In this document: positions 224-50,274 of the stretch, one piece after another | How the letters are laid out: each line of letters begins with the position of its first letter | Numbering within the stretch: the first letter of the stretch is position 1 | Origin: an uncultured Pseudomonadales bacterium | GTDB lineage: Bacteria > Patescibacteriota > Microgenomatia > UBA1400 > PJMF01 | Assembly: GCA_964521215.1 (NCBI GenBank) | Contig: CAZFRD010000001.1 | Coordinates: 59,210 to 123,209 of the forward strand | Direction of reading: 5' to 3' | Length of the DNA: 64,000 bases | The notes under the pieces: model-generated | Database searches by the model: none | What the model saw: the letters and a program-made list of their open reading frames with translations, nothing else | Told to the model about the DNA's origin: nothing | Made by a program: the position numbers and the translations under genes

Positions 224-1201
224 CTAACTACAAGAACCCTTGTCTCTCAGGTACTGCTGATAGGCAGTACTGGCACAACCTTCTCTAAAATGGACTGGCT
301 GATACTCGCAACTCCTTAATGTGCTTTGATAATTAGCATCGGCAGTTTTAAAACAGTCTTGTTTGATTTTTACTTCTAACTCAGCGTTACGAGCTGCCTC
401 ATCTGCTGCTGCCTGATCCTGTTTAGCCTGTTCTTCTTGGTAGTATTGATCTTGTCTAAGTAGATAATCATCAAATGCTTGGGAATCTCTTTCTAGATCA
501 GCATAAAAATTAGCTTCAATAGCTGAACATTGGCTTTTAGACATAAAAGAGTAGCTACCATCCAGTGTTTGGCAACAAATCGTCTGGTTACAGTTAGAAC
601 GGGTCATTTCTCTGTAGCCGCCACCACAATTGGGATGGATATTACACCTGACTATTTCATTAGGATCTGGATTTGAGCCTGAGGTGCTCCCCCAAGCAGC
701 GTTAAACTCATCACATTCCTTCTGAGTGGTCTTAAAAGTGACTCCATCAGGTCCAGTGCAGTTGATTTGATTAGAAACAGTTTTGGTGGTGGTTATTGGC
801 TGGTTCGTTTGTGCAGGAGTATTGGAATTTCCCACCTCTGGTGATGAGCTAGCTGGAGCACTAATTACTTGTTTTCGCTCAGGAGGAGAAAAACCTAATC
901 TTGCCTCAACAGTTTCAAAATCATGAAGCAACCAGAAAAAGCTAATAAAAGTCGCTAGAACAACAACTCCATACTTTCTAGCATCTTTGGTTTTTAGTGA
1001 ACTCAACACTTTACCCAATAGTACTAGAAAAACCACTATTCCACCTAAAACAATTATTCCTAAAGTAGTTAACCAAAACATTAGTGTTGTACCAGGATTT
1101 CTATGGATGAAAAACAATGACAAGAAAAACAAAGCCATTGATAGAAACCAAATCCAGTAGAGTTTATTTAGAGAAAGTGATTTTTTCTTCGAGTTTGACA
1201 T
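224..1201 (-). CDS. hypothetical membrane-anchored protein with a Cys-rich extracytoplasmic domain
   Basis: 325-aa ORF. The N-terminus has two hydrophobic helices; a Ser/Thr/Pro-rich linker follows, then a Cys-rich domain and a Gln/Asp/Ala-rich acidic coiled-coil-like tail. No family recognised. Confidence 0.45.
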   Translation of the reverse strand: MSNSKKKSLSLNKLYWIWFLSMALFFLSLFFIHRNPGTTLMFWLTTLGIIVLGGIVVFLVLLGKVLSSLKTKDARKYGVVVLATFISFFWLLHDFETVEARLGFSPPERKQVISAPASSSPEVGNSNTPAQTNQPITTTKTVSNQINCTGPDGVTFKTTQKECDEFNAAWGSTSGSNPDPNEIVRCNIHPNCGGGYREMTRSNCNQTICCQTLDGSYSFMSKSQCSAIEANFYADLERDSQAFDDYLLRQDQYYQEEQAKQDQAAADEAARNAELEVKIKQDCFKTADANYQSTLRSCEYQPVHFREGCASTAYQQYLRDKGSCS

Positions 1202-1267
1202 TGTTGATATTATAAAGCTACAAGGAGAAGCTGTTTAGATTTAGTTATTTCACCCACAATATTTTTT

Positions 1268-1495
1268 GTGGGAACTAAACTTAAAACAACAAAATTACAC
1301 AAGGAGTTTGGAAAACAAATCCAGAAACTACGTAAAGAGCGTGGTTTGACTCAGGAGGATTTAGCTGGTGAGGTTGGTGTTGATCGCAGTTATATGGGAT
1401 TTTTGGAGCGAGGTGAAAAAAATGCCACTCTCGACAAAATTGGTAAAATTGCCAAAGCACTCCATATTAAACTTAAAGAATTATTTGACTTTTGA
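1268..1495 (+). CDS. XRE/Cro-C1 family helix-turn-helix transcriptional regulator
   Basis: 75 aa. Contains the classic HTH_3 motif LRKERGLTQEDLAGEVGVDRSYMGFLERGEKNATLDKIGKIAKAL. It lies immediately upstream of the DGR target gene on the same strand. Confidence 0.8.
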   Translation: MGTKLKTTKLHKEFGKQIQKLRKERGLTQEDLAGEVGVDRSYMGFLERGEKNATLDKIGKIAKALHIKLKELFDF

Positions 1496-1548
1496 TCATA
1501 TCCAGAATTGATGCTAAAGTTACAAAAAAAATCTTGTAAAATAGTGTC

Positions 1549-3549
1549 ATGACGGAAAATACGGGATCTCAATTTCTTGGTGAGCGTTATCCAAGACTTG
1601 CGAAAAGCTCAGAAGTTACTGCAGCAGTAGCACGAACGAAAGCTCGCACTGGAAAAACAATTATAAAAGATCCAGATGAAAGAATTCAAAATTATCTTGG
1701 CAGGTTTAGAGAAATTGTTGAACGCAGCGATCCGCAAGCAAAGGCTCGGGGAATTGTAGCTCTTAAAAAGATTCTAGTCGATCGGTATGTAGTACGAGTA
1801 GAAGATATTCCAAATAGTTATTGGCAGGCACAACTGCGAGTTGTGAGGAATCGAGGAGAATTTGGAGACTGGCAAAACTTACCAGAAGAAGAAGTACTAA
1901 AACTTAAACAAGAACATCTTGCTCAATCTAAAGAAGACCAACAAGGAAGTATCGAAGAATGGATTGATTATCTTGCGTCAGATAGATCTTCATATTTGCC
2001 TGACTATCTAAAATATTGGGTGTTTGCTGGAATGCTTAAGCTTGAAAGATATGAAAAAGCTGAAAAAAACCAACATGGAACAGTTATTAAGCAGGGAAGA
2101 TTTCCTGAGCGTCCTACAGGAAGGCAGCGCACAATTAAGATGTTTCCTGAAGTGAACGAAAGCGGACTCAAGTTCATCGCTTCTGCATACAAGCAACAAA
2201 CGGAAGGAAAAAATATTTACTGGGGATATAACCAGGATATTCCTGCAGATGTTAGACAAACTTTTCTTGACGCTCTTAAGAGGAAAGATTTCCGTGCAGC
2301 ATATGGATGGGTACAAGAACATATTCCTCCAATTACCGATGAAGAAATGCAAATAACAGAGGGCAGAAATTGTGGTTGGGTAACTTTTTCCAAAGATCTA
2401 GGTCATACAGGTCGAGATGTAGCAGTAACACTTGCGGGCAAGGGAACTGGCTGGTGCATTGCGGGCCGCGAAACCGCCCAAGGTAACTATCTAGATCAGG
2501 GAGCAAAACTTCACATATATTACACGCGCGACAAAGATGATAAACAAGCAAACCCTCGTGTAGGAATTGTAGAAATGGGAGGCAAGGTCACTGAGGTCAG
2601 AGGCATAGAATGGGAAGAAAATATTGACGATTATATTAAACCCACAGATGTGATCGAAAAAAAATTGAAAGAACTTCCTGGCGGTGAGGGATTTTTTGAA
2701 ACAGATGTAGATACTAAATATCTAACAGCCATTGATCAGAAGATGCATTGCAATGAGCCATTAAAAAGAGAAGAGTTAATTTTCCTTTATGAGATAGACA
2801 AACCTATTAAATATTTTGGCTACCAACGTGACCCTAGAATCGCTGAACTTCGGGCTCGACGGGATCCAATAGAGGATGCGCCTGTCGTTCTTGACTGTGA
2901 TCCAGGAGAGATTGCTTGGAATCGTCATGAGGTTTCTACTCATACCAAGGCATACATAGGGCCACTCTTCCCTGGAATTTTTGAAGAGTTTAGTGGTTTA
3001 GAACATATCTATACTTCTTTCCCTGAAGGAAAAATTACAGGAGATGAAGTAGTCATTGGTACTAAAGATAGGAAAGAGCTTCTAGAAGCCATGAAGAAGC
3101 AAGGAATTGATACTAGCACATATGCACAGGAAATGATTGAAAGTCCTGATTTTATGCCTACTCAAAGTCGCTTGAGTGGTATCCAAAGACTCTTTAAGGG
3201 AGAAGGATCGCAAACCGCTAAAACAGTTGATGTCATTCGATTAAAAGTGCGAGATTTTGGATTTACCAATTACCCCACCACTACTGAGTTGTTTGCCAAA
3301 GCAGAAGAGTTTGGCTTAGAACTCTGTCCAGCTGAAGTTGGTCCGCAATACCGTTTGCAACAAACTGACCAACCAATGAATGATTGGTTTTATATTGGCA
3401 TGAAACCGCTTGTCGCGTCCGGCGATCCTAGTGTGTTCACGCTCGGACGCTATGGCGATGGCCTGTGGCTCGACATCAGCTGGGCGAGACCAGACAGTCG
3501 TTGGCCTCTAGATGGCGAGTTTGTGTTTCGTTTTCGCAAGAATTCTTAG
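1549..3549 (+). CDS. DGR target protein (variable protein); VR occupies the C-terminal ~45 codons
   Basis: 666-aa ORF. Its 3' end (3405..3540) is a near-copy of a downstream repeat and differs almost only where the downstream copy has adenine. No obvious signal peptide, and the N-terminal region is not recognised. C-terminal tail reads ...MKPLVASGDPSVFTLGRYGDGLWLDISWARPDSRWPLDGEFVFRFRKNS. Confidence 0.7.
   Translation: MTENTGSQFLGERYPRLAKSSEVTAAVARTKARTGKTIIKDPDERIQNYLGRFREIVERSDPQAKARGIVALKKILVDRYVVRVEDIPNSYWQAQLRVVRNRGEFGDWQNLPEEEVLKLKQEHLAQSKEDQQGSIEEWIDYLASDRSSYLPDYLKYWVFAGMLKLERYEKAEKNQHGTVIKQGRFPERPTGRQRTIKMFPEVNESGLKFIASAYKQQTEGKNIYWGYNQDIPADVRQTFLDALKRKDFRAAYGWVQEHIPPITDEEMQITEGRNCGWVTFSKDLGHTGRDVAVTLAGKGTGWCIAGRETAQGNYLDQGAKLHIYYTRDKDDKQANPRVGIVEMGGKVTEVRGIEWEENIDDYIKPTDVIEKKLKELPGGEGFFETDVDTKYLTAIDQKMHCNEPLKREELIFLYEIDKPIKYFGYQRDPRIAELRARRDPIEDAPVVLDCDPGEIAWNRHEVSTHTKAYIGPLFPGIFEEFSGLEHIYTSFPEGKITGDEVVIGTKDRKELLEAMKKQGIDTSTYAQEMIESPDFMPTQSRLSGIQRLFKGEGSQTAKTVDVIRLKVRDFGFTNYPTTTELFAKAEEFGLELCPAEVGPQYRLQQTDQPMNDWFYIGMKPLVASGDPSVFTLGRYGDGLWLDISWARPDSRWPLDGEFVFRFRKNS
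3405..3540 (+). repeat. DGR variable repeat (VR)
   Basis: 136 nt aligned without gaps to 3906..4041. There are 21 mismatches; at 18 of them the TR base is A and the VR base is G, C or T. A fully conserved GC-containing 3' segment (gcgagtttgtgtttcgttttcg) is IMH-like. Confidence 0.8.
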
Positions 3550-3905
3550 TTGCTTGAATTCTTGAAAAAGTGACCCTTTGAATCTATAAAACTATGATAC
3601 TAAATTTTTAAAATTTTTTAGTCTGTTCGGGTTTATTTTGTCTTTTATTTCTATGTCTTTTGCAAATATACTGACAGATGATTGTGTTCTATTGGGTGGT
3701 CATGGCTACCTGAAACGCAGTTGGCATTTGTATATTGAGATCATAAATGGAGAAATTCTTTTTGTGGAGGGAATATAATTTGTCTATAATAAAAAGAAAA
3801 CTTGGTGTGTCGTGCTTGTGGATTTCTATCCCAAATAAATAACAGCCTAATATTTCTTTTCGTCATATTGGCAGTGACTCTAGATGGCACTTCACACATA
3901 GTTTC

Positions 3906-4041
3906 ACCGCTTGTCGCGTCCGGCAATCCTAATGTATTCAAACTCGAACACAATAGCAATGGCCTGTGGCTCAACAACAACTGGGCGAAACCAGACAATA
4001 ATTGGCTTCTAGCTCGCGAGTTTGTGTTTCGTTTTCGAAAG
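3906..4041 (+). repeat. DGR template repeat (TR), non-coding template
   Basis: The TR copy is rich in AAC/AAT codons (ctc aac aac aac tgg; aat cct aat; gac aat aat), a hallmark of DGR templates. It sits between the target gene and the RT gene. The tracked ORF 3802..4089 covering it is probably not a protein. Confidence 0.8.
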
Positions 4042-4056
4042 TACTTCTTTTCCGCA

Positions 4057-4446
4057 CTATTCGTTAGTGCGGTTTTTGTTTTGAGATAACTCTATGTTTT
4101 TTCTCCACCCACCAAGCATTTTCCCCACATCGTTTAATTTAAAAGCGATTTCCTCATATTGTTTATGAGACAGTAATTTAGCTTCCCACGCTATTGACAG
4201 TAAAAATTTAAGTGAATCAAGTAAAATAACACAGCCTGTTACCTTTTTATATTTTGCTTCCTTTTCAGTAAAATAAGATGCATATGTTTTTTCCAATAGA
4301 TCTAAAAAGGTATTTTCTATTCTGGCACCTATTGTGTAGCGTGCTCCTTTAGGCATATGAGGAACAAATCGCAACCAAATCAAATAAGCCTCTTTGAGAT
4401 GGTAAACAACAGAGTTAGTGCTATAAGGAGTAGTCATTTTAATCAT
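4057..4446 (-). CDS. avd: Avd-like accessory variability determinant (four-helix-bundle, 23S rRNA IVS-protein family)
   Basis: About 130 aa. Its layout resembles Bordetella bAvd and the IVS-protein family: YHLKEAYLIWLRFVPHMPKGARYTIGARIENTFLDLL...LLDSLKFLLSIAWEAKLL...IAFKLNDVGKMLGGWRKN. It is encoded on the strand opposite to TR and RT. Start is ambiguous: TTG at 4485, or ATG at 4446 or 4437. Confidence 0.55.
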   Translation of the reverse strand: MIKMTTPYSTNSVVYHLKEAYLIWLRFVPHMPKGARYTIGARIENTFLDLLEKTYASYFTEKEAKYKKVTGCVILLDSLKFLLSIAWEAKLLSHKQYEEIAFKLNDVGKMLGGWRKNIELSQNKNRTNE

Positions 4447-5417
4447 GTCTATGACAATATCATCTCTTTTGATAATTTGCTCCAATCTTGGAAGGATTTT
4501 TTAAATGGAAAAAGAAAGCGCAAAGATGTCATCTTATTTTCCCTAAATTTGATGGATAACATTTTGCAACTTCATCAGGATCTCTTAAACAAAACCTATC
4601 ATCATGGTTTTTATCAGGCTTTAAAATCAATGATCCAAAACCAAGAGATATTCACAAAGCTGAGGTAAAGGACAGGCTAATTCATCACGCAATTTACAGG
4701 ATTCTGTATCCATATTTTGATAAAAAATTTATTTTTGATTCATATTCTTGTCGAAAAGGTAAAGGCACACATCGAGCAATTCAGCGTTTTGTAACATTTA
4801 GCAGAAAAGTTAGCAAAAACAATACCCGCACAGCCTGGGTGCTAAAGTGCGATATTCAAAAATTTTTTGCCAATATAGATCACGATCTGCTCAATCAAAT
4901 TTTAGCTCAGCACATTGATGATCCTGATGCACTTGAGCTATTAAGAGAGGTTATCGGCAGTTTTCGAATTAACCCGTGTGTGTCAGTTGGTTTACCACTG
5001 GGAAATTTAACAAGCCAACTTTTGATAAATATTTACATGAATGAATTTGATCAGTTTGCAAAGAGAACCTTAAAAGCAAAATACTACATCCGTTATGCTG
5101 ATGACTTTGTTTTTCTCCACGAAGACAAACACACTTTGGTTGCTATGGTTCCTCAAATCGAATCTTTTTTGAAGGACAAATTAAAATTGGCTCTTAATCA
5201 GCGCAAAGTCTCTATCAAGACACTTAACTCTGGTATCGATTTTTTAGGATGGGTTAATTTTCCTCATCATCGAGTATTGCGTACAACCACAAAAAGAAGA
5301 ATGTTTCGCAAATTACAAAAAAATCATAGCAGAGAGACTCTTGCGTCGTATTTAGGATTGCTAAGTCACGGCAATGCTTATAAATTAAGATGCAGCATAT
5401 TAAGCAACAATTTTTAG
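4357..5417 (+). CDS. DGR-type reverse transcriptase (frameshifted at ~4620; start uncertain)
   Basis: Two frames (4357..4668 and ~4590..5417) together align with the Bordetella Brt RT. Matching segments include ISFDNLLQSWKDFLNGKRKRK, YHHGFYQA|FKINDPKPRDIHKAEVKDRLIHHA, SYSCRKGKGTHRAIQRF, VGLPLGNLTSQLLINIYMNEFD, IRYADDFVFL and GIDFLGW. The frame change occurs in a T-run (gcTTTaaaa) that also forms a U_UUA_AAA heptamer. The alignment shows that no residues are lost across the junction. Possible starts are ATG 4357, ATG 4399 or TTG 4477; the first two overlap the avd 5' end. Confidence 0.85.
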
Positions 5418-5877: not shown

Positions 5878-7866
5878 TTACTCAAACACGGGACGTGCAT
5901 CTTGTAGTTTTTTGTAATCATCGGGGAACATTTCCTCGATTGCCTTCAGCGCTTTAGCTCTTTCATTTGCATAAAAGACATCAAGTTTGGCGTAAAATTC
6001 TTGATTTAACTCAATCTCCATCAATTGTGCTAGATTGACCGCCATCACCGCAAAAGTGGCATTACGAGAGTTCACCAAACCTCTAAAAGTTATCAATCTA
6101 GCGCGATTGATCTCTGTTTCTCGTCCACTAGCCGTATCACCAAACAAATCATCTAGCTGATCAAAAGCATTGGTAAATTGTTTGTTTGCTTTAATGGCCT
6201 TCCAGCCGGATTCTGAATTAAGCTTTTCTTGTTGAAACGCTTGAACAACTCTGTCATCAATCAATTGATTATGTAGAAGATCCACAAATAGCGCATCAGC
6301 ACCCTTCACAATCTTACTCCATAAAGCACGTTGCTTTTCAGTAAAGTTAGCAAACACCGAGCCACCGTTGAGTACGCCATACAGAGCATTAAACCATTCG
6401 TTGGGACCGGTGGGCATTGTCAACAAATTGAAAGTACCAACTTGAGGCAACATTAGCGGTGCCTCACCAGATTTAACTGCCTCAACCAATACCACTTGTT
6501 CAAGTTGAAGTTTAAGCTGGGTAGTGATGGTAATATCATTAGTTCGGAGTAAAATAATTTTTCCCCTATTTTCCTTAACTTGTTCGATGATTTTCTCAAA
6601 TGAGTTCTCTGCAGTTACCGTAATTCTTACGACATCTGATTGATCTTTATCTAATTCATTGCTCAAACCTTCTATTTTTTTATCTGAATGTTCACCAGTG
6701 AAGAGAAGTAGAGTATAAGGCGAATTTTGGTGAGTTTTTTGATAAGTTCTAAAATGATCAACCATTGTCGCTAACTCTTCCATGTTGGATCCATTGCCTG
6801 AGGTTGATCCCATTATCCATCGGTCAGTTTTCGTATCTTTCCATTTGGCCACCACTTCTTTTTTATTCATGACATCGGCAATCGTGCCGGCCGCATAAGC
6901 TTCAATGCCATAATATTTTTTCATGACTTTGGCCACTAGTTTGCTGGGCGCCAACATTGGCGCACCATGAGTAATTTCTTCAATCAGCAACAAAGGATTA
7001 AATTTTAGAAACTTAAAGATATAGCCTGGATCGACAGGCATGGTTACCAATGCTAACACCTGGCCCAATTTTTTGAAAAATCTGCTCACACGACGCATAG
7101 TGGCGGGGTGAGAACTAAAGGCAAAATTGACGCCCAACTGAGCTCTAATTCTCTCAACTTCTTGACCCATTTCCTTGTCGAATAGTTCGTATTCTAATGA
7201 TGAAAATAATTTAAGTAATCTTCTAGCTAACCATGGGTGAGTACGCAAATACTGTTCAAATGGAGATTCTGACTCAGATTCATCTACCTTGACATTATTG
7301 GTAATGTACTTGATCAGTATTTTTCTTACGTAACCTTTGGGATCGTCAGAAAATTTCTTCGGAATTAAACCCAACTCATCTAAGTGGTCGATAATATCTA
7401 GCTCGTTTTGAACGGCAGAATGGGCATGTCTTTTTACCTCAAAACCTTTGCTAGCTTTGCCCGTGACGATATTTGCCGAAAATACGTAGGTCACTTTGCG
7501 AAAGATTTTAACAACAGCATTAACAAACGCTTGGGTTTCAAAACCATGACCCCAACCTGCCTCAACCAGTTCGCCGGCAGCGATTATGCGATTGATTGCC
7601 TCATCAAGTAATTTTGAGTCACCAAAGATTTCTTTAAATGCTTCTAGGTATTCGATTGCTAAAGGAGGGGGTTCGTCTTCAGGATTAGGATTGTATCGCA
7701 ACAGTCCATGTTGGACCTCATTTCCAACTCTGATTCTTCGGAAAAGGTCTTTGAGACCATTTTTAACACCATTTCTGATAGGATTTTCATTCCACCGTGC
7801 CCGCTGTGGTATTTCAGGAGTCTCTTTTGTTCTACGCCATAGTGACATAGACCTATAATTATACAC
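5878..7866 (-). CDS. hypothetical protein (662 aa, soluble, no family recognised)
   Basis: Long uninterrupted ORF starting at GTG 7866 or ATG 7848. No P-loop, HTH or transmembrane segments seen. It is convergent with the DGR RT gene. Confidence 0.5.
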   Translation of the reverse strand: MYNYRSMSLWRRTKETPEIPQRARWNENPIRNGVKNGLKDLFRRIRVGNEVQHGLLRYNPNPEDEPPPLAIEYLEAFKEIFGDSKLLDEAINRIIAAGELVEAGWGHGFETQAFVNAVVKIFRKVTYVFSANIVTGKASKGFEVKRHAHSAVQNELDIIDHLDELGLIPKKFSDDPKGYVRKILIKYITNNVKVDESESESPFEQYLRTHPWLARRLLKLFSSLEYELFDKEMGQEVERIRAQLGVNFAFSSHPATMRRVSRFFKKLGQVLALVTMPVDPGYIFKFLKFNPLLLIEEITHGAPMLAPSKLVAKVMKKYYGIEAYAAGTIADVMNKKEVVAKWKDTKTDRWIMGSTSGNGSNMEELATMVDHFRTYQKTHQNSPYTLLLFTGEHSDKKIEGLSNELDKDQSDVVRITVTAENSFEKIIEQVKENRGKIILLRTNDITITTQLKLQLEQVVLVEAVKSGEAPLMLPQVGTFNLLTMPTGPNEWFNALYGVLNGGSVFANFTEKQRALWSKIVKGADALFVDLLHNQLIDDRVVQAFQQEKLNSESGWKAIKANKQFTNAFDQLDDLFGDTASGRETEINRARLITFRGLVNSRNATFAVMAVNLAQLMEIELNQEFYAKLDVFYANERAKALKAIEEMFPDDYKKLQDARPVFE

Positions 7867-35706: not shown

Positions 35707-36601
35707 TGCCCTAACTGTGACTACCATCATCCCCACTTATAACGGCAGAAAACTGCTAGAAAAAAATCTGCCTTCCGTCCTACGTTCATTAAGAAATGGG
35801 GATGAGTTAATTATCATCGATGATGCCAGCCAAGACGAAAGTTGCAATTGGTTAAAATATGGTTTTCACCTCACTCAGCAACGCAAACCAAATCTTTCAG
35901 ATAAGCATGGTGAGTTTGAGTTGTTTCAGGGATTTGTAGTATTGAAACATAAGAGAATTGCAATTACTTTAATTGAAAATGCTCGCAACCTCAGGTTTGC
36001 CGCTAGTGTTAACCGAGCGGTTGGGTTAGCAACAAAACCCTTGCTCTTTTTGCTCAACTCGGATGCATCGGTTCAACCAGATACAGTTGATTGTTTGGTG
36101 AAGGCATATCAGAATAACGCTCAGCCCATTTTTGCTATTGGTTGCTTGGAATATGAAGGCGAAATCAACCAAGACCTAAAAAGTTTACCTACGGCAGGAA
36201 AAAACAAACTTTGGTTTGAACGTGGCTATTTTATGCACAGCAAAGCTAGCACCGATGCCTCGGGCGAAACGGTCTGGGCGAGTGGGGGGAGCGCGCTGTT
36301 CAACCGCGAAAGATGGCTAGCATTGGGGGGATTTGACGAGCGTTTCGCCCCGGCTTATTGGGAAGATATCGATCTTTCCTATCGTGCTAAAAAGAAAGGT
36401 TGGCAAGTCTTGTTTGAAAGATCGGCCGTTGTTTTTCATCAGCATGAATCAACTAACCAGCGTGTATTTTCAGAATCGGAAGTTCAACAACTCAGTTGGA
36501 AACACGCCGCCTACTTTGTGCAGAAACATGGCTCTTTTTGGCAAAAGCTAGCTTTTGTCTTATGGCAACCATATTGGTTATGGAAAAGATCTCGCCAATG
36601 A
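35699..36601 (+). CDS. family 2 glycosyltransferase
   Basis: VTTIIPTYNGRKLLEKNLPSV...LIIIDDASQDES...FLLNSDA...YWEDIDLSYRAKKKGW. Its stop overlaps the next gene's start within the bases ATGA. Confidence 0.7.
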   Translation: MSDALTVTTIIPTYNGRKLLEKNLPSVLRSLRNGDELIIIDDASQDESCNWLKYGFHLTQQRKPNLSDKHGEFELFQGFVVLKHKRIAITLIENARNLRFAASVNRAVGLATKPLLFLLNSDASVQPDTVDCLVKAYQNNAQPIFAIGCLEYEGEINQDLKSLPTAGKNKLWFERGYFMHSKASTDASGETVWASGGSALFNRERWLALGGFDERFAPAYWEDIDLSYRAKKKGWQVLFERSAVVFHQHESTNQRVFSESEVQQLSWKHAAYFVQKHGSFWQKLAFVLWQPYWLWKRSRQ

Positions 36602-38193
36602 AAAACAAGCAATCATTAATGTTATTGTTCTTAGTCTTGTTAGCTGGAATAATTAGATTTTGGCAACTTGGTACCATACCTTCGGGACCCAACTGGGATG
36701 AAGCTGCGATTGGCTACAATGGCTGGTCGGTTTGGCAGACCAGAAGAGACGAGTGGTTGGAAAAATTGCCAACTTCTTTTCGCTCTTTTGGAGACTACAA
36801 AGCTCCGTTAGCGATATATCTTAATGGTTTGTTTACCTCACTTTTTGGATTAGAAACATGGGTAATTAGATTGCCTTTTGCCTTATCGGGAGTAATTGGT
36901 GTGGTGGGATTTTATTTTCTACTCAAGTCAATTTTTAACTTTTCACCCAAAGGGAGTACTTATCTTTCTTCTGCCTGGTTAGCGTTACTGGGTACTGGAA
37001 TGCTCACGATCTCTCCGTGGCATATTTTATTTACTCGAGCTGGTTTTGAAAGCGGCCTAGCCCTAAGCGAAGTCGTCTGGGCCACAACTTTGTTTTTATC
37101 TTCATTACAGCTGAAAAAGAAAAACTGGCAATACTTTTGCTGGCAAATTACTGCTGGAATACTATTTGCCAGCACTTTTTATACTTACCACAGCGCCAAA
37201 GTGATGGTACCACTTTTTCTTTCACTTTTATTTTTATTGCTCAGCCGCAAAAAGTTGATTGCAATCAAACAGGTTGTGATTTTTTCAGCCGGCGTGCTCA
37301 TCTTAATCATTCCATTTTTAATCGACTCATTATTGGGTGAGGGTCTCACTCGGGCTAATGTCACTATCTTCGCTCATACCCAATCATTGGCTTATCTTCC
37401 ACTATTATTGATTAAAAATTTGCTGGCTCACCTCAGTCTCTCGTTTCTCTTATTGGGTAAAGCTGACTCAATTCGTCACTCAATTGGTACGATGGGAGTA
37501 TTGTTTCCCACCACTGCATTTTTATTCGCCTTAGGATTGGTGGCAAGATACAAAAAAAACTATATATTTATTTGGTCTTTCGCCACAATTTGGGTTGTAG
37601 CGGGATTGGCACCCGCCATCATTGGGATTGAAGTCCCTCATCCCAATCGTGCCTTACTCGCCCTGCCAGGTTTCTTACTTTTTGCCTTACTGGGAATTGA
37701 CTTGATAACTGAAAACATCTCAAAACATACACGTCAACCCGCCAAGTACCTCAAAATATTTATTGCTAGTTTGGTCATTATTAACATCATTCAAGCTAGT
37801 TATTTTTTATCTCAATATTTTGGCGTTTATGCCAAGCAATCTAGCCCATATTTTCAAGATGGTTACCGGGAAATGTTTACTGAAGTTTGGTCTTACTACG
37901 ATGGTAAAGATGGTCGGCATTCTGTTGATCAAATTGTTATCACGAGCGAATATGGTCAACCGTATATTTACGCTCTTTTAACCAGGAAAATTTCCACTTT
38001 TCAGTACCACAATGGCGCATTGATCAACTTTATTTTCCCCGATGTAGTCCAGTTAAGCGATCTTGATCGGCCCAATGCTTTGATTGTAGCTGGTGAAAAA
38101 AGTGATCTAGTTAATCGCACGCAAGCTTTTAAAGTGATATATACCAAAGACGGTAAACCAAGATTTTGGTTGTTTGATACCGACCAACTTTGA
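36598..38193 (+). CDS. GT-C glycosyltransferase, GT39/PMT-ArnT-like (paralog 1 of 5)
   Basis: IIRFWQLGTIPSGPNWDEAAIGYNGWSV...FGDYKAPLAIYLNGLFTSLFGLETWVIRLPFALSGV, followed by about 11 transmembrane helices. Confidence 0.75.
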   Translation: MKNKQSLMLLFLVLLAGIIRFWQLGTIPSGPNWDEAAIGYNGWSVWQTRRDEWLEKLPTSFRSFGDYKAPLAIYLNGLFTSLFGLETWVIRLPFALSGVIGVVGFYFLLKSIFNFSPKGSTYLSSAWLALLGTGMLTISPWHILFTRAGFESGLALSEVVWATTLFLSSLQLKKKNWQYFCWQITAGILFASTFYTYHSAKVMVPLFLSLLFLLLSRKKLIAIKQVVIFSAGVLILIIPFLIDSLLGEGLTRANVTIFAHTQSLAYLPLLLIKNLLAHLSLSFLLLGKADSIRHSIGTMGVLFPTTAFLFALGLVARYKKNYIFIWSFATIWVVAGLAPAIIGIEVPHPNRALLALPGFLLFALLGIDLITENISKHTRQPAKYLKIFIASLVIINIIQASYFLSQYFGVYAKQSSPYFQDGYREMFTEVWSYYDGKDGRHSVDQIVITSEYGQPYIYALLTRKISTFQYHNGALINFIFPDVVQLSDLDRPNALIVAGEKSDLVNRTQAFKVIYTKDGKPRFWLFDTDQL

Positions 38194-38233
38194 TGTTTCA
38201 AAGTCGGAGCCGTTCCAAAACGATCTTTTTTTT
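38180..38233 (+). terminator. hairpin spanning the stop codon plus a ccgttccaaaacg hairpin and T8 tract
   Basis: ccgac-caa-ctttga-tgtt-tcaaag-tcgg, then gagccgttccaaaacgatc followed by tttttttt. Confidence 0.5.
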
Positions 38234-38308
38234 GATTCTCGATGAGAATATTTTACCCAAAAATCACAACTGTATTTTTATTAACATTTGAGAAACACTC
38301 TACTAATA

Positions 38309-38380
38309 AAAAATATGGTTTAGTGTAAAGCACGTCTCCAGACGGGGCCATGCTTTAGTGTAAACCCCCATCAAATAAAA
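38309..38380. repeat. intergenic imperfect-palindromic element, copy 2
   Basis: aaaatatggTTTAGTGTAAAGCACgtctccagacggggccATGCTttagtgtaaacccccATCAAATAAAA. The central 16 nt are the reverse complement of the copy-1 centre, while the outer flanks are in direct orientation. Confidence 0.6.
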
Positions 38381-38513
38381 AGCACGTAGCTTGGGGTAGC
38401 AATTAGCGATACTTCATAAGTCAGTTCAATAGTTTGCAGAACCATTAGTCTTTTTCTAGGATTTCTTTCTAATCAAACAAAGAAAATAACCGTTGGGAAT
38501 GGTATCCAAAAAG

Positions 38514-40058
38514 TTATTCGATCAAAAAATCACTACCACTTTCACCTTGATAAATATACCCAGTCGTATCTAGAGTAGCATCAGAGTTGCCGATCGTGCC
38601 AATAATGACTTGAAAGGGCACTCGACCAAAACGATGACTTTGTTGTTGGTATTGCGAATCGAGCTTAAAAAGAGCTACCTTGGAGTAAGCTAATGAATGC
38701 CGACAGGCAGGGAAGATATCCCAAGCGCAGATCTCTCGATTGTTACAGATATCAACCACCGTGGTGGCTGTTTCATCAATGGTTAAAGTAGAATATTGTT
38801 TAACGCCAAAAAACACATTATTGATAAAATCATCATCGTGGAAAATAAAGCGAATATTTTGCCCAGGTGATTTGGCTTGAATAAACTCAATTGTACTTTG
38901 TAACTCTGCCAAATCGTTATAGCTATGCCATTGACTAATATAGATTCCCGAAGAAAAAAACATCAAGCCAAATATGCTGAGAATGACAAACTTGGAGCGA
39001 GTGGCTGACATTAAACTCGCCAGAAAGACAAAAGGTAAAAAGAAAAGGGTGCTGAAAAAATAATCCAACTTATCTCCCCTGAAAACTCTGAGCATTATAA
39101 AAATACTGAAAAAATAGAACAAGATTATTATAAAAGAAAGATTCTTAGTTTTCCGATAATGTGCAATCAGGGAAAAGATTCCACCAAAGTAAATAGAGAG
39201 ACCAAAAATTGAATAAAGAGTCTCTTTGCCGAATAATACTCGGTCAAAAAATGCCGGAAAGTAGGTGAAAACATATGTTGGCTTAGAGATTCGTTCAAAA
39301 TACCTCGAATGTTCTTGAGTAAAGTAGTTCAATATCGCTCGGGAGTTGGAAAAATTAGAAGTAATTTCCGCATAGAAATATGGCAGTAAGATAAGAGACA
39401 TTATGATTATGCCACTCGCCCAAAATAGTAGTAGTCGCTGAGAAAAATTGTTTTTGATAGAGTAAATGAAACAAAAAGCAAGCAGGGGTAGTAAGACAGC
39501 AGCTTGATAATGAAACTGAAAAGCGACAATAAATGAAAAACAAGCTATTGGAATAAACCACAGCTGATGGTATTTAACTACTCGGATAGATGAATAGACA
39601 AGAAGCAAAGAGAAAAAAGGAATCATGTTGGGATTCCAGGCCGTCGTACCATACTGCAGGGGAATTGGTGCCACGATATATAACAAACTAGATAATGTTG
39701 CTAACTTGATACCAAATAATTCTTTAATAATCAGAAATAATAAGACCGGACTTAAGGCTTCAACTATGGTCACAACCCACTTCATGACCAGAGGATCATT
39801 GTTGGTGAATAGCGAAAAGATCACATGAATTTGGTAATAAAGTGGAGGCAAATAGAAATTGCCTATGCCCACTTTTGGCCCATAGTCAACTATGATCTGA
39901 TCAAATTTTATTCGTTGACTCATAAGCCATGAGTCTCGAGCAACATCTTGTCCAAACGAAATATGGGTAGAGGAGAAAATCAGGCGGGTGCTCAGACTGA
40001 GAATCAAGATGAGAAGGACTACTAGTGTATTACTGGTCTTGAGCTTGCTATGATACAT
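38514..40058 (-). CDS. polytopic membrane protein, GT-C-like candidate (unnamed family with D-x-x-R-D...WNP motifs)
   Basis: FGQDVARDSWLM...TAWNPNMIPFFSLLL with about 12 transmembrane helices. Related to 51171..52883 and 52904..54319. It is the only minus-strand gene inside the GT39 array. Confidence 0.45.
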   Translation of the reverse strand: MYHSKLKTSNTLVVLLILILSLSTRLIFSSTHISFGQDVARDSWLMSQRIKFDQIIVDYGPKVGIGNFYLPPLYYQIHVIFSLFTNNDPLVMKWVVTIVEALSPVLLFLIIKELFGIKLATLSSLLYIVAPIPLQYGTTAWNPNMIPFFSLLLVYSSIRVVKYHQLWFIPIACFSFIVAFQFHYQAAVLLPLLAFCFIYSIKNNFSQRLLLFWASGIIIMSLILLPYFYAEITSNFSNSRAILNYFTQEHSRYFERISKPTYVFTYFPAFFDRVLFGKETLYSIFGLSIYFGGIFSLIAHYRKTKNLSFIIILFYFFSIFIMLRVFRGDKLDYFFSTLFFLPFVFLASLMSATRSKFVILSIFGLMFFSSGIYISQWHSYNDLAELQSTIEFIQAKSPGQNIRFIFHDDDFINNVFFGVKQYSTLTIDETATTVVDICNNREICAWDIFPACRHSLAYSKVALFKLDSQYQQQSHRFGRVPFQVIIGTIGNSDATLDTTGYIYQGESGSDFLIE

Positions 40059-41768
40059 AATATGCGTAATTTCTCGATTGCTACAATCATTATCTTAGCA
40101 GTCGTTTTTCGTTTCTTCCAGTTGGGAAACCTACCTCCCTCACCTTATTGGGAAGAGGTGGCTCTCGGTTATGATGCCTATTCTATTCTGCAAACTGGTC
40201 GGGATCACCATGGTCATTGGTTTCCTATTGTGGCTTTTGAATCTTTTGGTGACTGGAAGCCCGGCTTTTATATTTACTCGGTTATTCCTAGCATTTTTAT
40301 ATTTGGCTTAAATACTTTTGCCGTGCGTTTACCATCGGCGATAGCTGGTATCGCCATTGTGATTGGTTCTGGCGTTTTGGCCAACTTGTTGTTTTTGACA
40401 AAAAAAACTGCCGACCAACCAGTTGAACAAACTGATCGCTGGTTGCCACTACTAGTCATGTTGGTAGCCGCAGTCGAACCCTGGGGGATTATCTTTTCTC
40501 GTGGAGCCTGGGAGGCTAACTTGGCCAGTGCGTTAATACTCTGGGCAATTATCTGTATCTTCCAACAAGCAAAATTCAATCAAAAGTCAAAGATGGCTGG
40601 CAATTTATTTTTTTCGGCGATACTGACAGCTTTGGCTATGTACACCTATCATGCAGCTCGGATTGCCGCCCCGCTAATGGTCGGGGCGGCATTTATTTTT
40701 CAAGAACTAGAAAATAAAACCATTTGGATCAATGCCAAACAACGAGCGAAACGCTGGCGACAACTAGTTGTGCCCATCATCGTCTTTATCTTGATGTTGT
40801 CACCACTCATAACCAATATTTTTACCAACCAAGTAACCAATCGTTTTGTCACTACCTCGATCTTTTCCAATCTAGAAATTATTATCCAAAGCAACCAACT
40901 GAAAGAAATTGCGGGCAACAACTTATTAGCTCGCTTGTTTTATCATCGATATTTATTATTTGCCAAAGAAATCTCCATTAATTTTGTCAAAAACTTTGAT
41001 CTGGGATATCTTTTCCTCCATGGTGATACCAATCCTCGTCACTCAATTCAGTATTTTGGCCAGTTCTTTCCACTTAGCTTGATACTAATTATTATTGGTA
41101 TGACGGTATTATTTTTTAAACATCGATCCAAAACTTTACTATTTTTGCTTTGGTTTATTGTCGGTTTACTGCCCTCTACTCTAGTAATCGGATCACCGCA
41201 TGCAGTCAGAACGCTGATGATTTTACCCTTTTGGTTCATCATTATTGGCTTAGGTTTGCATCGATGTATTGATTGGTTGTCTCGTGTTAATCAACCAAAA
41301 CAAACCATTGTAACGTTAGTTTTTTCTTTTGTTTTGATAGCGCAGATCAGCATCTTTTGGATCTATTATAGTCAGATCTATCCAGCTAAATACGAACACG
41401 AATGGCAGTTTGGTTATCAACAACTGGTATCAGAGGTCAATCAGTTGGCCACGGCGTTTCCCGATGATCAAATTTATATTACCAGAGAGCAGGGCAGGCC
41501 CGCCATGTACTATTGGTTTTTCTCTCAAACAGATCCACGCTTAGTGCAAGCATATGAAAAGACCGCTTACAAGGATCAAGGCGAATTTCTTCAATTTGGA
41601 AGACTGCATTTTATTGACAAAGCAGACCAAGTATCAACCAGCTTTGGCATCTTAGCCGCATCTCCCTCTTTTACTGCCGATGTGGGACTGGCTACCGATG
41701 GTGATAACGTAACTATAGTTGATTCATTCGGCAAGCCTATTTGGGTCGTCCAACATTATGAAAAATAA
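40050..41768 (+). CDS. GT-C glycosyltransferase, GT39/PMT-ArnT-like (paralog 2)
   Basis: VFRFFQLGNLPPSPYWEEVALGYDAYSILQTGRDHHGHWFPIVAFESFGDWKPGFYIY...AVRLPSAIAGI. Confidence 0.75.
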   Translation: MIHNMRNFSIATIIILAVVFRFFQLGNLPPSPYWEEVALGYDAYSILQTGRDHHGHWFPIVAFESFGDWKPGFYIYSVIPSIFIFGLNTFAVRLPSAIAGIAIVIGSGVLANLLFLTKKTADQPVEQTDRWLPLLVMLVAAVEPWGIIFSRGAWEANLASALILWAIICIFQQAKFNQKSKMAGNLFFSAILTALAMYTYHAARIAAPLMVGAAFIFQELENKTIWINAKQRAKRWRQLVVPIIVFILMLSPLITNIFTNQVTNRFVTTSIFSNLEIIIQSNQLKEIAGNNLLARLFYHRYLLFAKEISINFVKNFDLGYLFLHGDTNPRHSIQYFGQFFPLSLILIIIGMTVLFFKHRSKTLLFLLWFIVGLLPSTLVIGSPHAVRTLMILPFWFIIIGLGLHRCIDWLSRVNQPKQTIVTLVFSFVLIAQISIFWIYYSQIYPAKYEHEWQFGYQQLVSEVNQLATAFPDDQIYITREQGRPAMYYWFFSQTDPRLVQAYEKTAYKDQGEFLQFGRLHFIDKADQVSTSFGILAASPSFTADVGLATDGDNVTIVDSFGKPIWVVQHYEK

Positions 41769-43446
41769 AATACTTTTAGCAATCATTATTATAATTGCTG
41801 CTGGACTGCGCCTCTTTGATTTAGGATCTATTCCCATTGCCCTGAATCGTGATGAAGCCTCGCTGGGATACACCGCCTATTCCTTGTTAAAAACTGGAGC
41901 AGACGAATATGGTAAAAAATGGCCGTTAAATTTGGAGTCTTTTGGCGACTGGAAATTACCCGTATATACTTGGTTCACTATTCCCAGCGTTGCCCTGTTT
42001 GATCTTTCAGCTTGGTCAGTTAGATTACCTTCGGCTTTGGCAGGCATTGCGGCAGTGGGGCTAATTTACCATTTATCATTATTGCTAATCTCTCAGAGTC
42101 GCTACCGCTACCAGTTTGCATTACTGACGGCACTACTGCTGGCAATTTCACCCTGGCATCTCCACTTTTCTCGTCTGGCCTATGAGGCCAATCTCGGTTT
42201 AACCCTGCTGTTAGCAGGCATGCTCTTGCTGTTTAAATATTTTCGCCAGCCAAAAGGCGTGCTAATTATTTTGAGCGCCATGTTCTTTGGACTGACCATG
42301 ATTTGTTATCATGCCTTACAGTTAGTGACGCCACTAATCTTAGTGACAATCATTTTTCTATTTGCAAACAAATTAATTAAAAAACAAACAGCTCGCTTAA
42401 TCGTTTTGCTTGTCGCCAGCGCCTTTGTACTACTACCAATGATCTTTTTATCAACGGTAGCTACCCAACACAGCAACAATGTAAAATTATCAGGCATTTC
42501 TATTTTTGACAAAGAATCATATTTCCGCAGGTCACAGGCTAAACGCCAATATTTTAATAATGATCATTGGTTAATAGCAAAATACTACACCAATATTCCG
42601 CTCGAATTTATCCGTCAATTATTGGTGAATAGTACGACTGCTATCAATCCCGACTTTTTATTTATCAATGGCGCTGGTCATGGGTCGCACGATATCAGTG
42701 GTATCGGCAAACTTTATAGTGCGACCATACCTTTTTTGGTCTTGGGTTTAATGACAATTTTTAGCCGTAACTCTTTATTCAATCGTCAGGTAAGACTTTT
42801 TGTTTTTGGCTGGTTAATAATTGGCTTGCTTCCCGCACTAATTACTTGGCAATCAGCCCATGCCACTCGTTCATACGTTATTGTCATTCCCCTGATATTG
42901 ATCACAGCCCAAGGCATTTTTTGGCTATTTCAGCAACTCAAGAAGCAAAACCCCAAACTGCTCTGGGCGAGTCTGATATTTACATTCGTCGTTTTATTTT
43001 TTCAACTCGGTAGCATGATGATTACTTATTTTATTGTGGCACCACAAAGAGATAGCGAGAACTGGTCGTGGTATGCCCAAGACATGGTGAAGTTTTTGTC
43101 CTTGGCTCGAACGCAAGTCGATCACGTTTATGTTCAGGGTTACAGCTGGTCTCCATATATCTACTACTTATTTTATGCCAAAGTCGATCCACAGTACGCC
43201 CAAACTCATTTAAATCATTTGTCCGCTGATGTTGAGGGCTTTCGACACGTCAATCAATTCGACTCAATCGACTTTGGCGATGTGCCTTTTCAACATTTGA
43301 TTGAAGCGGGTAGTTCGTATGCGGTGTTTGCTCCCAAGAGTCAACTCCCCACTAATTTCAGTCAGGATCCGACTCAATTTGATTATTTTGAAGTATTAAC
43401 CAATCCAAATAGCAGGGAAACCTATGTGGCAGTCTTTAAAAAGTAA
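41758..43446 (+). CDS. GT-C glycosyltransferase, GT39/PMT-ArnT-like (paralog 3)
   Basis: GLRLFDLGSIPIALNRDEASLGYTAYSLLKTGADEYGKKWPLNLESFGDWKLPVYTW...SVRLPSALAGI. Confidence 0.75.
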   Translation: MKNKILLAIIIIIAAGLRLFDLGSIPIALNRDEASLGYTAYSLLKTGADEYGKKWPLNLESFGDWKLPVYTWFTIPSVALFDLSAWSVRLPSALAGIAAVGLIYHLSLLLISQSRYRYQFALLTALLLAISPWHLHFSRLAYEANLGLTLLLAGMLLLFKYFRQPKGVLIILSAMFFGLTMICYHALQLVTPLILVTIIFLFANKLIKKQTARLIVLLVASAFVLLPMIFLSTVATQHSNNVKLSGISIFDKESYFRRSQAKRQYFNNDHWLIAKYYTNIPLEFIRQLLVNSTTAINPDFLFINGAGHGSHDISGIGKLYSATIPFLVLGLMTIFSRNSLFNRQVRLFVFGWLIIGLLPALITWQSAHATRSYVIVIPLILITAQGIFWLFQQLKKQNPKLLWASLIFTFVVLFFQLGSMMITYFIVAPQRDSENWSWYAQDMVKFLSLARTQVDHVYVQGYSWSPYIYYLFYAKVDPQYAQTHLNHLSADVEGFRHVNQFDSIDFGDVPFQHLIEAGSSYAVFAPKSQLPTNFSQDPTQFDYFEVLTNPNSRETYVAVFKK

Positions 43447-50242: not shown

Positions 50243-50274
50243 CCGTAATTGTTTGTCATTACAATAACTAATAT

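Follow-up and report, generated by a model that had tools for sequence, protein, structure and literature searches.

The diversity-generating retroelements (DGRs) of the Patescibacteria (CPR) were reportedly first surveyed by Paul et al. in 2017. To our knowledge, the B3 clade to which many of them belong has no experimental model. The B3 architecture, with the order TR-(avd)-RT (template repeat, accessory variability determinant and reverse transcriptase), was assigned to 90% of CPR DGRs by Wu et al. (2018, PMC5758913). In the classification of Roux et al. (2021, PMC8144416) it is equivalent to DGR clade 2, and the targets of CPR DGRs typically have no recognizable domains (PMC8144416). The prototype, the DGR of Bordetella phage BPP-1, has the order mtd-avd-TR-brt. 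For priming and stopping cDNA synthesis, the Bordetella DGR depends on RNA that flanks the TR at either end, namely avd-derived and spacer RNA elements. In BPP-1, a hairpin that follows the variable repeat (VR) marks the recipient (PMC3240598), and 34% of DGRs have a GC-rich hairpin or cruciform repeat downstream of the VR (PMC5758913). Weinberg et al. (2017, PMC5737381) described the Rfam "RT" RNA motifs, which lie near RT genes; the BPP-1 spacer RNA is represented among them as RT-10. Handa et al. (bioRxiv 10.1101/2023.10.23.563531) give predicted Avd-binding stem-loops just 3′ of the TR in 207 out of 278 DGRs.

We analysed a 64-kb stretch of DNA, 93% coding and henceforth referred to as the window, that carries a locus of this kind. 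We favour, with moderate confidence, its interpretation as a chromosomal Patescibacteria (CPR) B3 DGR that wrote its VR in the past and is now impaired and probably inactive. The gene order is that of B3 (target, TR on the plus strand, avd on the minus strand, RT on the plus strand), and the B3 unit is kept in about 45 of 81 related genome loci and across RT-anchored metagenome loci. In several loci, the entire cassette is inverted relative to the target. The locus also resembles CPR B3 DGRs in its inverted avd, its chromosomal site in a Patescibacteria-like genome, the lack of recognizable N-terminal domains in the target, the C-terminal VR and the concentration of TR adenines in AAY codons. 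It differs from them in the frameshift of its RT and in the five adenines missing from its TR. A reading made from the sequence alone (the sequence-only reading) had described a complete DGR; every component was indeed identified, but a 1-nt deletion interrupts the RT and the TR is damaged. Compared with BPP-1, an antisense avd follows the TR hairpin here, whereas BPP-1 has a 140-nt spacer; the GC-rich hairpin lies on the TR side, with none conserved after the VR; the IMH-like stretch is not GC-rich; and the element is cellular whereas BPP-1 is phage-borne. The features of the locus are listed in the table.

Features of the DGR locus and its immediate surroundings (positions within the window)
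Feature	Position	Strand	Remarks
XRE-family HTH regulator, 75 aa	1268..1495	+	Pfam HTH_3 at 1e-14
DGR target (variable protein) gene, 666 aa, intact	1549..3549	+	VR at 3′ end
VR (variable repeat)	3405-3540	+	ungapped pairing with TR; ends 9 nt upstream of target stop codon
Fixed VR-side C opposite TR A4038	3537	+	C in 26/28 related loci with TR A in that column
Weak 8-nt periodic CTT[T/A]G-type array after VR	3543..3585	+	TTCTTAGT TGCTTGAA TTCTTGAA AAAGTGAC CCTTTGAA
Conserved structured RNA leader directly 5′ of TR	3784..3891	+	RNAalifold, 26 loci
TR (template repeat)	3906-4041	+	non-coding; 37 adenines, mostly in AAY codons in the target reading frame
Corrupted TR tract	4006..4016	+	AAT CTA GAT AAC -> CTT CTA GCT CGC; five adenines replaced
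GC-rich stem-loop and U-tract	4052-4072, 4073-4082	+	CCGCACTA-ttcgt-TAGTGCGG; terminator scan
avd (accessory variability determinant)	4057..4446	-	Pfam bAvd PF22296, 54.4 bits, cut-off 40
DGR RT, interrupted	4399..5417	+	two ORFs, 4399-4668 and about 4560-5417, in different frames

A repeat search and an ungapped comparison showed that VR and TR form a 136-nt direct repeat with 85% identity and 21 mismatches. Both strands of the window were searched for further VR or TR copies and none was found. At 18 of the mismatches the TR has adenine (13 A>G, 3 A>C and 2 A>T in the VR), and when substitutions are tabulated by TR base, 18 of 37 adenines are mismatched compared to 3 of 99 other bases (Fisher p=1.2e-9). 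The gapless alignment, the number of differences and the adenine bias reported in the sequence-only reading were thus all reproduced. Across 37 related loci, mismatches occur at 740 out of 1,477 TR adenines and at 24 out of 3,461 other bases. The VR has been written in the past by DGR-type mutagenesis. The adenine-site differences are confined to 3424-3500, or to 3424-3515 if the ancestral TR (see below) is the reference. The three non-adenine mismatches (TR>VR, in VR coordinates T>C at 3506, C>A at 3512 and C>G at 3514) fall in columns that have A in nearly all related TRs. The 3′ part of the repeat had been noted as identical and IMH-like, and about 21 nt are identical up to a single A/C difference (4038/3537). 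Because the VR-side C recurs in almost all related loci with a TR A in that column, this is a fixed family-wide difference, not random mutagenesis, and the C at 3537 may be an IMH/IMH*-like marker that tells recipient from donor.

The proteins of the cassette agree with this assignment. The ORF proposed to be of the Avd family was borne out by Pfam bAvd and by PHROG 3206 ("Avd protein of DGR", 2e-17); it scores 63 bits with the NCBIfam equivalog, under the cut-off of 80, and is 97% identical to the Avd of the two close relatives L004 and L005. Translation probably starts at the ATG at 4437 or at 4446, and the ORF is open up to 4485. The 5′ ends of avd and RT overlap by about 39-48 nt. The opposite strand and the overlap had been noted previously as unusual points; both hold, but the inverted avd is an ordinary trait of the B3 layout (PMC5758913). 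The reconstructed RT (339 aa) matches PDB 8ub7 at 2e-43 over residues 15-308, spanning the break described below, while the next best matches, group II-like and retron-type RTs, are at 1e-21. The 8ub7 record is a 328-aa "Reverse transcriptase", which we take to be the Bordetella phage bRT. There were 176 phage records among the RT matches, the best at 38-40% identity, and these include Bordetella, Bacteroides, Faecalibacterium and crAss-like DGR phages. The RT has YADD and LGNLTSQ motifs, the latter fitting [ILV]GxxxSQ, a hallmark of DGR RTs. Judged by E-values and motifs, the RT belongs to the DGR clade and not to the group II intron, retron or defence RTs. The Brt-like RT proposed earlier is therefore a DGR RT by similarity, but it is encoded in two frames and not in one ORF.

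We considered whether the locus could hold no DGR, and instead be a drifted tandem duplication of the 3′ end of the gene beside an unrelated retron or group II RT. The bare repeat alone would allow this, and the best NCBIfam model for the RT is the group II RT TIGR04416, although at 143 bits it is below the cut-off of 300; a model for DGR RTs is lacking in NCBIfam, and with the retron St85 RT model the protein scores 59 against a cut-off of 235. This explanation is almost certainly wrong, and we rejected it on the adenine bias, the Avd and the RT similarity: the extreme bias (p=1e-9) is seen again in 37 loci, Avd is present, and the RT is 22 orders of magnitude nearer to 8ub7 than to group II or retron-type RTs. 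Intron RNA domains were not found, and the window has no matches to Rfam intron or retron RNAs.

The history of the TR was examined by comparison with the relatives. Over about 160 nt, the sole differences between the window TR and the TRs of L004 and L005 are five changes from A to another base at 4006-4016. These represent five of the nine window-specific changes in the conserved block 3791-4367. The affected columns have A in 32-35 of 36 family TRs, and the window shows the largest loss of core TR adenines among the loci compared. The ancestral TR and the order of events were derived by parsimony from L004 and L005 and the family consensus. Relative to the ancestral TR, the VR has 22 differences and all 22 are at adenines; it was therefore the TR that changed, and no rewriting of the VR has followed. 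Homing after the TR change would have erased the three non-adenine differences, and the VR keeps bases that only the older, intact TR could have given. The present TR allows 17 codons to be recoded (about 10^17 protein variants) and the ancestral TR 20 codons (about 10^20).

The same three mismatches could also stem from low-fidelity reverse transcription of an unchanged TR. CPR DGRs often have several non-adenine substitutions, for which a lower RT fidelity was suggested (Wu et al. 2018, PMC5758913). For this locus, we consider such an origin highly improbable: 26 of the 37 family loci are without any non-adenine mismatch, the three sites are exactly those at which the window TR differs both from its counterparts in L004 and L005 and from the A of the family consensus, and no non-adenine mismatch is left when the VR is compared with the ancestral TR. 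The damage is best explained either by self-homing, with cDNA that carried adenine mutations being wrongly directed to the TR, or by gene conversion of a short TR stretch from a VR-like sequence. The locus may preserve a case of natural DGR self-mutagenesis of the template, in which five TR bases, all adenines and all towards the 3′ end, were changed. The GC hairpin beside the TR in the B3 clade may favour such self-mutagenesis.

Three-frame translation located the break in the RT. The N-terminal part is in frame 1 (4399-4620), where reading on leads to a stop at 4666-4668, and the remainder, in the frame of 4620-5417, joins it only after one base is added near 4618-4620. DNA alignment to L004, L005, L002 and L001 showed that the Ala codon at 4618-4620 lacks a single C. 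As sequenced, the gene is thus not the intact, expressible one that would be needed to call the DGR complete or putatively functional. The RTs of about 29 genome loci are single unbroken matches, as are 80 out of 80 metagenome RTs in a set selected by score. This deletion aside, the three genes (RT, avd and target) are undamaged and show good conservation, and therefore any inactivation is recent. Overall, the element looks recently disabled by the RT frameshift and the loss of five TR adenines.

We note that the frameshift could be a rare assembly error. The DGR would then be complete and active, and it is true that every component is there and otherwise intact, and that just one base is absent, adjoining a T3A4 run. 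We regard this as unlikely because the absent base is part of a CC/CT run of 2 nt and not of a long homopolymer, no other split gene was found in the 64-kb window, and VR and present TR differ at three non-adenine sites independently of the RT. Another possibility is that the RT is made by -1 frameshifting and the DGR works at a reduced level. The deletion places TTTAAAA in the X_XXY_YYZ register, which gives positions 4620-4626 (T_TTA_AAA) the look of a -1 slippery heptamer. Slippage at this site could restore the RT, with a product reading ...YQALKINDPKPRD, one residue off the YQAFKINDPKPRD of the relatives, and some RT may therefore still be made. A working DGR of this type nevertheless seems distinctly unlikely to us. 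The arrangement is not conserved, with a one-frame RT in all relatives examined; to the eye, neither an SD-like element upstream nor a stimulatory structure downstream is obvious; and it is left unexplained why the altered TR was never copied into the VR. We thus retain the reading of a genuine DGR of a kind known from CPR, of which this copy is probably decaying.

The TR is flanked by RNA elements on both sides. The leader has an invariant CTTGGTG (3801-3807), a closing helix (3811-3816/3886-3891) and two hairpins, B (3820-3823/3828-3831) and C (3841-3853/3865-3876); TATAAT at 3785-3790 is a candidate -10 box. In the alignment, 92% of the cells are paired, compared to 31-46% with slid partners, and there are 94 double-change cells where 32 are expected; 0 of 500 shuffles attained the observed value. 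The covariance model of the leader (R1) has a single match in the window, at 87 bits, and matches 58 out of 80 RT-anchored metagenome loci (59 matches), some with a different target. The leader shares with the Rfam "RT" motifs a conserved RNA structure and physical linkage to a DGR RT and TR; unlike them, it has no counterpart in Rfam 15, where no family matched even at E<=1. On the other side, the GC-rich stem-loop begins 10 nt past the TR and overlaps the last avd codons on the other strand. It is kept in nearly every related locus, with a conserved CCGC/GCGG base and a fifth pair that covaries (GC in 12 loci, AU in 12 and GU in 4). It resembles an intrinsic terminator that would end the TR RNA, a stem-loop bound by Avd, or both at once. 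The three-helix 5′ domain and the GC hairpin with its U-tract may stand in place of the avd-derived and spacer RNA elements of Bordetella. We found no account of the leader RNA, the fixed A/C marker or the CTTWG array in the literature that we consulted.

By analogy with the Bordetella phage DGR, a plus-strand non-coding RNA would consist of the three-helix leader, the 136-nt TR and the GC hairpin with its U-tract. A complex of Avd and RT would reverse-transcribe the TR with misincorporation opposite adenines, and the cDNA would replace the VR at the 3′ end of the target, recoding about 17-20 codons on the C-type-lectin-fold domain. The 1-nt RT deletion and the five adenine-specific substitutions in the 11-nt tract near the 3′ end of the TR would now impair this process. 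We infer the transcription of the RNA, its 5′ and 3′ ends and the roles of leader and hairpin. The combined proposal of a B3 template RNA (~285 nt, with a covarying 5′ domain and a 3′ hairpin) and of a DGR that mutagenised its own TR here is tentative, and we hold it with low confidence.

As this is one more, probably decaying, member of a catalogued Patescibacteria clade, the DGR call itself matters little. Two by-products could be of interest to DGR specialists. The leader, with strong covariation over more than 80 loci, is a concrete and testable upstream RNA for the B3 clade. The damaged TR, set against two otherwise identical TRs, indicates that the template itself can suffer adenine-specific damage, which would be a route of DGR decay, and a TR change as seen here offers an alternative to low RT fidelity as the source of non-adenine mismatches.

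The C-terminal ~110 aa of the target are a C-type-lectin-fold domain that carries the VR, in agreement with one of the folds suggested for it earlier. No function was assigned to the N-terminal ~550 aa; the absence of a known N-terminal domain had been listed as unusual, but it is typical of CPR DGRs (PMC8144416). The target family is present in at least 471 genomes, and the protein collection has no sequence >90% identical to the target (its cluster has one member). Of note, the target gene is a recombination mosaic. The XRE regulator reported immediately upstream is present, with 99% identity in L004 and 39-50% in L001 and L026, but it is an inconsistent partner, found beside the target in only 3 of 81 related genome loci. 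We treat it as a neighbour, and at most as a candidate DGR component.

No conserved hairpin or cruciform was found downstream of the VR among related loci (mean z -0.4). The weak array at 3543-3585 shares sequence with an AT-rich 9-bp inverted repeat (3537-3564). Over 36 loci, CTTTG was counted 76 times in the first 120 nt downstream of the VR, compared to 5.5 expected. Its occurrences peak at +25 to +100 nt, with a spacing of 8 in 20 cases and of 16 in 10, and the CTTWG array is also present after target homologs without the cassette.

All parts of a diversity-generating retroelement (DGR) are present in the window, with the reverse transcriptase (RT) frame broken and five adenines missing from the template repeat (TR), and the element is a new member of an already known DGR clade and is probably decaying. 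A repeat search and an ungapped comparison delimited a 136-nt direct repeat formed by the TR and the variable repeat (VR) of the target gene. The two copies differ at 21 positions, and the TR has A at 18 of these (13 A>G, 3 A>C and 2 A>T). The adenine bias described in the sequence-only reading was thus borne out by tabulation: 18 of 37 TR adenines are mismatched vs 3 of the 99 positions with another base (Fisher p=1.2e-9). Of the 18 adenine mismatches, 15 fall in the first or second position of a codon of the target ORF; the three non-A mismatches are at VR positions 3506, 3512 and 3514. No further copy of the VR or of the repeat was found on either strand of the 64-kb window when the TR adenines were set as wildcards.

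Features of the window, with coordinates along its full length
Feature	Coordinates	Strand	Description
Orphan gene	224-1201	-	325 aa, N-terminal membrane segment, Cys-rich C-terminal half
XRE-type HTH gene	1268-1495		Upstream of target
Target gene	1549-3549		666 aa
VR	3405-3540		3′ end of target gene
CTT[T/A]G array	3543-3585		Weak copy
Leader	3784-3891	+	Directly 5′ of TR; A-rich tract, invariant CTTGGTG, closing helix round two hairpins
TR	3906-4041	+	Aligns to VR without gaps
GC-rich stem-loop and U-tract	4052-4082	+	10 nt after TR; terminator scan
avd	4057-4485	-	Avd ORF
RT, first ORF	4357-4668	+	N-terminal part
RT, second ORF	4839-5417	+	Different frame
Orphan gene	5878-7866	-	662 aa
Glycan locus genes	24800-63000		dTDP-rhamnose (RmlD, RmlC, dehydratases), LytR_cpsA_psr, Wzx-like flippase, several GT1, GT2 and GT4
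Tandem paralogous membrane proteins	36496-52883		Seven to eight, about 510-585 aa, PMT_2 or YfhO/PTPS-related

The same pattern holds across the target family. A TR was paired with a VR in 37 related loci, with a pair length of 129-141 nt in all but one (L032, 91 nt). Over these 37 loci, 740 of 1,477 TR adenines are mismatched vs 24 of 3,461 other positions, 26 loci have no non-A mismatch at all, and A>G accounts for 59% of the changes. The differences within the window show past adenine-specific transfer of information from TR to VR in its lineage. One difference, A4038 in the TR and C3537 in the VR, is fixed, with the pairing kept in 26 of 28 loci, and is a donor/recipient marker resembling IMH*/IMH (the marker stretches at the 3′ ends of donor and recipient repeats). 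Its fixation suggests that cDNA synthesis starts 5′ of the marker.

We compared the TR with those of two close relatives, L004 (a Woesebacteria MAG) and L005, which served as the reference for the ancestral TR. Over about 160 nt the three are identical save at five sites (4006, 4007, 4013, 4015 and 4016), all of which are A in both relatives and non-A in the window, changing AAT CTA GAT AAC to CTT CTA GCT CGC. Only four further window-specific differences occur in the conserved block 3791-4367. The changed columns are A in 32-35 of 36 family TRs, and the window TR has lost more of the “core” adenines than any other locus. The three non-A mismatches coincide exactly with changed TR sites, and when the VR is compared with the ancestral TR, 22 of 22 mismatches are at adenines. 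The VR was therefore apparently written from an intact TR, which then acquired adenine-specific changes. Because later homing would have put T, C and C at 3506, 3512 and 3514, we infer that no rewriting of the VR followed the damage to the TR and that the element is now impaired. Recodable codons fell from 20 in the ancestral TR to 17 in the present one. The changed tract is short and adjoins the 3′ end of the TR, and so fits a 3′-anchored patch of mutagenized cDNA sent to the TR itself. An alternative source of the damage is short gene conversion from some VR copy; the present VR was not the donor, since it agrees with the new TR bases at only two of the five sites.

The RT is broken as well. 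The ORF listing splits it over two ORFs, and three-frame translation places the N-terminal YDNIISFDNLL…HHGFYQA in one frame and FKINDPKPRDIHKA…YADD… in another. DNA alignment shows that one C of an Ala codon is missing, the window reading CAGG-CTTTAAAATC vs GCC or GCT in four relatives. The RT had been read from sequence as a DGR-type enzyme in a single ORF; the type stands and the single frame does not. The reconstructed 339-aa RT matches PDB entry 8ub7 (a 328-aa “Reverse transcriptase” which in our reading is the bRT of the Bordetella phage) at 2e-43, in an alignment of residues 15-308 that spans the break, and group II-like and retron-type RTs at about 1e-21. It also matches 176 phage genome records at ≤40% identity (tblastn), including Bordetella, Bacteroides, Faecalibacterium and crAss-like DGR phages. 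Its sequence contains LGNLTSQ and YADD, and the motif [ILV]GxxxSQ is a hallmark of DGR RTs.

About 29 of the genome-locus RTs are single unbroken matches, as are the RTs of 80 out of 80 RT-anchored metagenome loci (a set selected by score), and the frameshift in the window appears to be an outlier among related loci. No other split gene was found in the 64-kb window, which is 93% coding, and an indel-prone assembly is therefore unlikely; overlapping same-strand ORF pairs, considered as possible signs of one, are separate complete genes. A single error at the RT break is possible. Through the deletion, T_TTA_AAA (4620-4626) comes to lie in register as a −1 slippery heptamer. Slippage at this site would give …YQALKINDPKPRD…, which might allow leaky RT expression. 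The arrangement is not conserved.

The minus-strand ORF next to the TR scores 54.4 bits against Pfam bAvd (cut-off 40), 2e-17 against PHROG 3206 (“Avd protein of DGR”) and 63 against NCBIfam Avd, which is under the cut-off of 80, in keeping with the earlier call of an avd gene on the opposite strand. The gene immediately upstream of the target does encode an XRE-type HTH protein, as had been noted; of the 81 loci surveyed, only 3 have it beside the target, and it was rejected as a consistent DGR partner.

The 666-aa target had no match in Pfam, NCBIfam or PHROG, nor in a profile search of PDB, and no weak Pfam signal recurred among 42 target-family members. There are at least 883 full-length homologs, all without annotation and from Patescibacteria wherever the source is named, and at least 471 species-level genomes have target relatives. 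We surveyed 81 genome loci with a target homolog for a cassette within 5 kb downstream. An avd and/or RT match was present in about 45 of the 81; about 35 had no cassette within this distance. The order TR(+), avd(−), RT(+) is kept in every locus with all three parts mapped. A TR-(avd)-RT layout with inverted avd is architecture B3 (Wu et al. 2018, PMC5758913), the layout of the window DGR, and the Patescibacteria-restricted DGR clade 2 typically has targets without recognizable domains (Roux et al. 2021, PMC8144416). The inverted avd and the domain-poor target, listed as unusual in the sequence-only reading, are therefore ordinary hallmarks of a known clade. As a whole, the unit has the opposite orientation to the target in L028, L038, L041, L077 and L079 at least, and probably in L037 and L057; in flipped cassettes the TR lies on the strand opposite its VR and the A-only mismatches are kept (L038: 22 A, 0 non-A). 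Decayed cassettes, with avd or the RT split or with remnants of an RT, occur in other relatives (L017, L041, L046, L012 and L058), so DGR decay beside this target family seems common.

The TR is flanked by two predicted RNA structures. For the leader on its 5′ side, 22 pairs are predicted by RNAalifold, and compensatory changes occur in 16. By pair counting, 92% of the leader cells are paired vs 31-46% with slid partners, and 94 double-change cells were observed vs 32 expected, a value reached by none of 500 shuffles. No Rfam family matched, even at E≤1. With our covariance model, the window yields a single match; in genome loci, matches lie beside mapped TRs and also in several loci without a mapped cassette. 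Of the 80 RT-anchored metagenome loci, 58 are matched (59 matches), some with an unrelated target; the leader thus belongs to the cassette and not to the target. Targets or leaders are duplicated in some relatives: in L043 a leader match of equal score follows each of two copies of the target, and L026 has two leader matches.

The hairpin after the TR, present in nearly every related locus, keeps CCGC/GCGG at its base and shows covariation at the fifth pair. On the opposite strand, the final codons of avd (…KNR…) overlap it. The U-tract, 3′ arm and loop, read in reverse complement (4057-4085, minus strand), encode the Avd C-terminal tail (…QNKNRTNE and stop), so the same bases are under both protein and RNA-structure constraint. 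For 207 of 278 DGRs, those of CPR among them, an Avd-binding stem-loop has been predicted shortly after the TR (Handa et al., bioRxiv 10.1101/2023.10.23.563531), and the hairpin could be such a stem-loop, a TR-RNA terminator, or both. The recipient is marked in phage DGRs by a GC hairpin after the VR (PMC3240598), whereas in the window the hairpin lies after the TR. Across related loci, no conserved hairpin or cruciform was detected after the VR (mean z −0.4); the AT-rich inverted repeat of the window (3537-3564) has counterparts only in L004 and, imperfectly, in L005.

Long-range pairing around the TR was also considered. By RNAduplex, a cPRT-Stop-like duplex between the upstream and downstream sides scored no better than shuffled sequences (mean z about 0). 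In consensus, the A-rich tract that precedes the leader is complementary to the U-tract after the hairpin, but no covariation is seen by eye in this register, and the pairing was rejected as probably trivial. The leader CTTGGTG (3801-3807) is the exact complement of CACCAAG (4107-4113), about 65 nt after the TR; the latter is antisense of the conserved Avd GKMLGGW codons, and hence fixed by them. The two could pair in a TR RNA that continues past the hairpin. On the model of the Bordetella system, the leader-TR-hairpin RNA would be reverse-transcribed by Avd/RT, adenines would be miscopied and the cDNA would replace the VR, with leader and hairpin taking the place of that system's avd-derived and spacer RNA elements. 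Only the leader RNA and the proposed self-damage of the TR might be of specialist interest.

A CTT[T/A]G array with an 8-nt period lies 25-100 nt after the VR, past the target stop codon, in the related loci. CTTTG occurs 76 times after the VR vs 5.5 expected, at spacings of 8 and 16 nt. The array also follows many target homologs without an adjacent DGR cassette, and might serve as a target-site element or to bind a protein.

Compared with relatives, the target gene and its surroundings (1208-5387) are a recombination mosaic. The XRE gene and the first ~30 nt of the target (1208-1578) match L004 at 91% nucleotide identity, and the C-terminal third of the target with TR, avd and RT (2815-5387) matches it at 84%; the N-terminal two-thirds of the target (1595-2823) match another relative, L001, at 79% and are unalignable to L004. 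An invariant FGY..DPRI motif lies at the breakpoint (about 2815-2823). TR and avd (3800-4400) are 94-100% identical to L004 and L005, vs only 63-85% for the RT and 51-58% (protein) for the targets, which suggests very strong constraint on the TR/avd block or its recent exchange. The two orphan genes flanking the DGR have no Pfam or PHROG match and no counterpart in any related locus. A phage origin was rejected: a target relative occurs in only two IMG/VR loci, and the neighbors in the window are chromosomal (gltX, a DNA pol III subunit and envelope glycosylation genes). The window also contains a large cell-envelope glycan locus.
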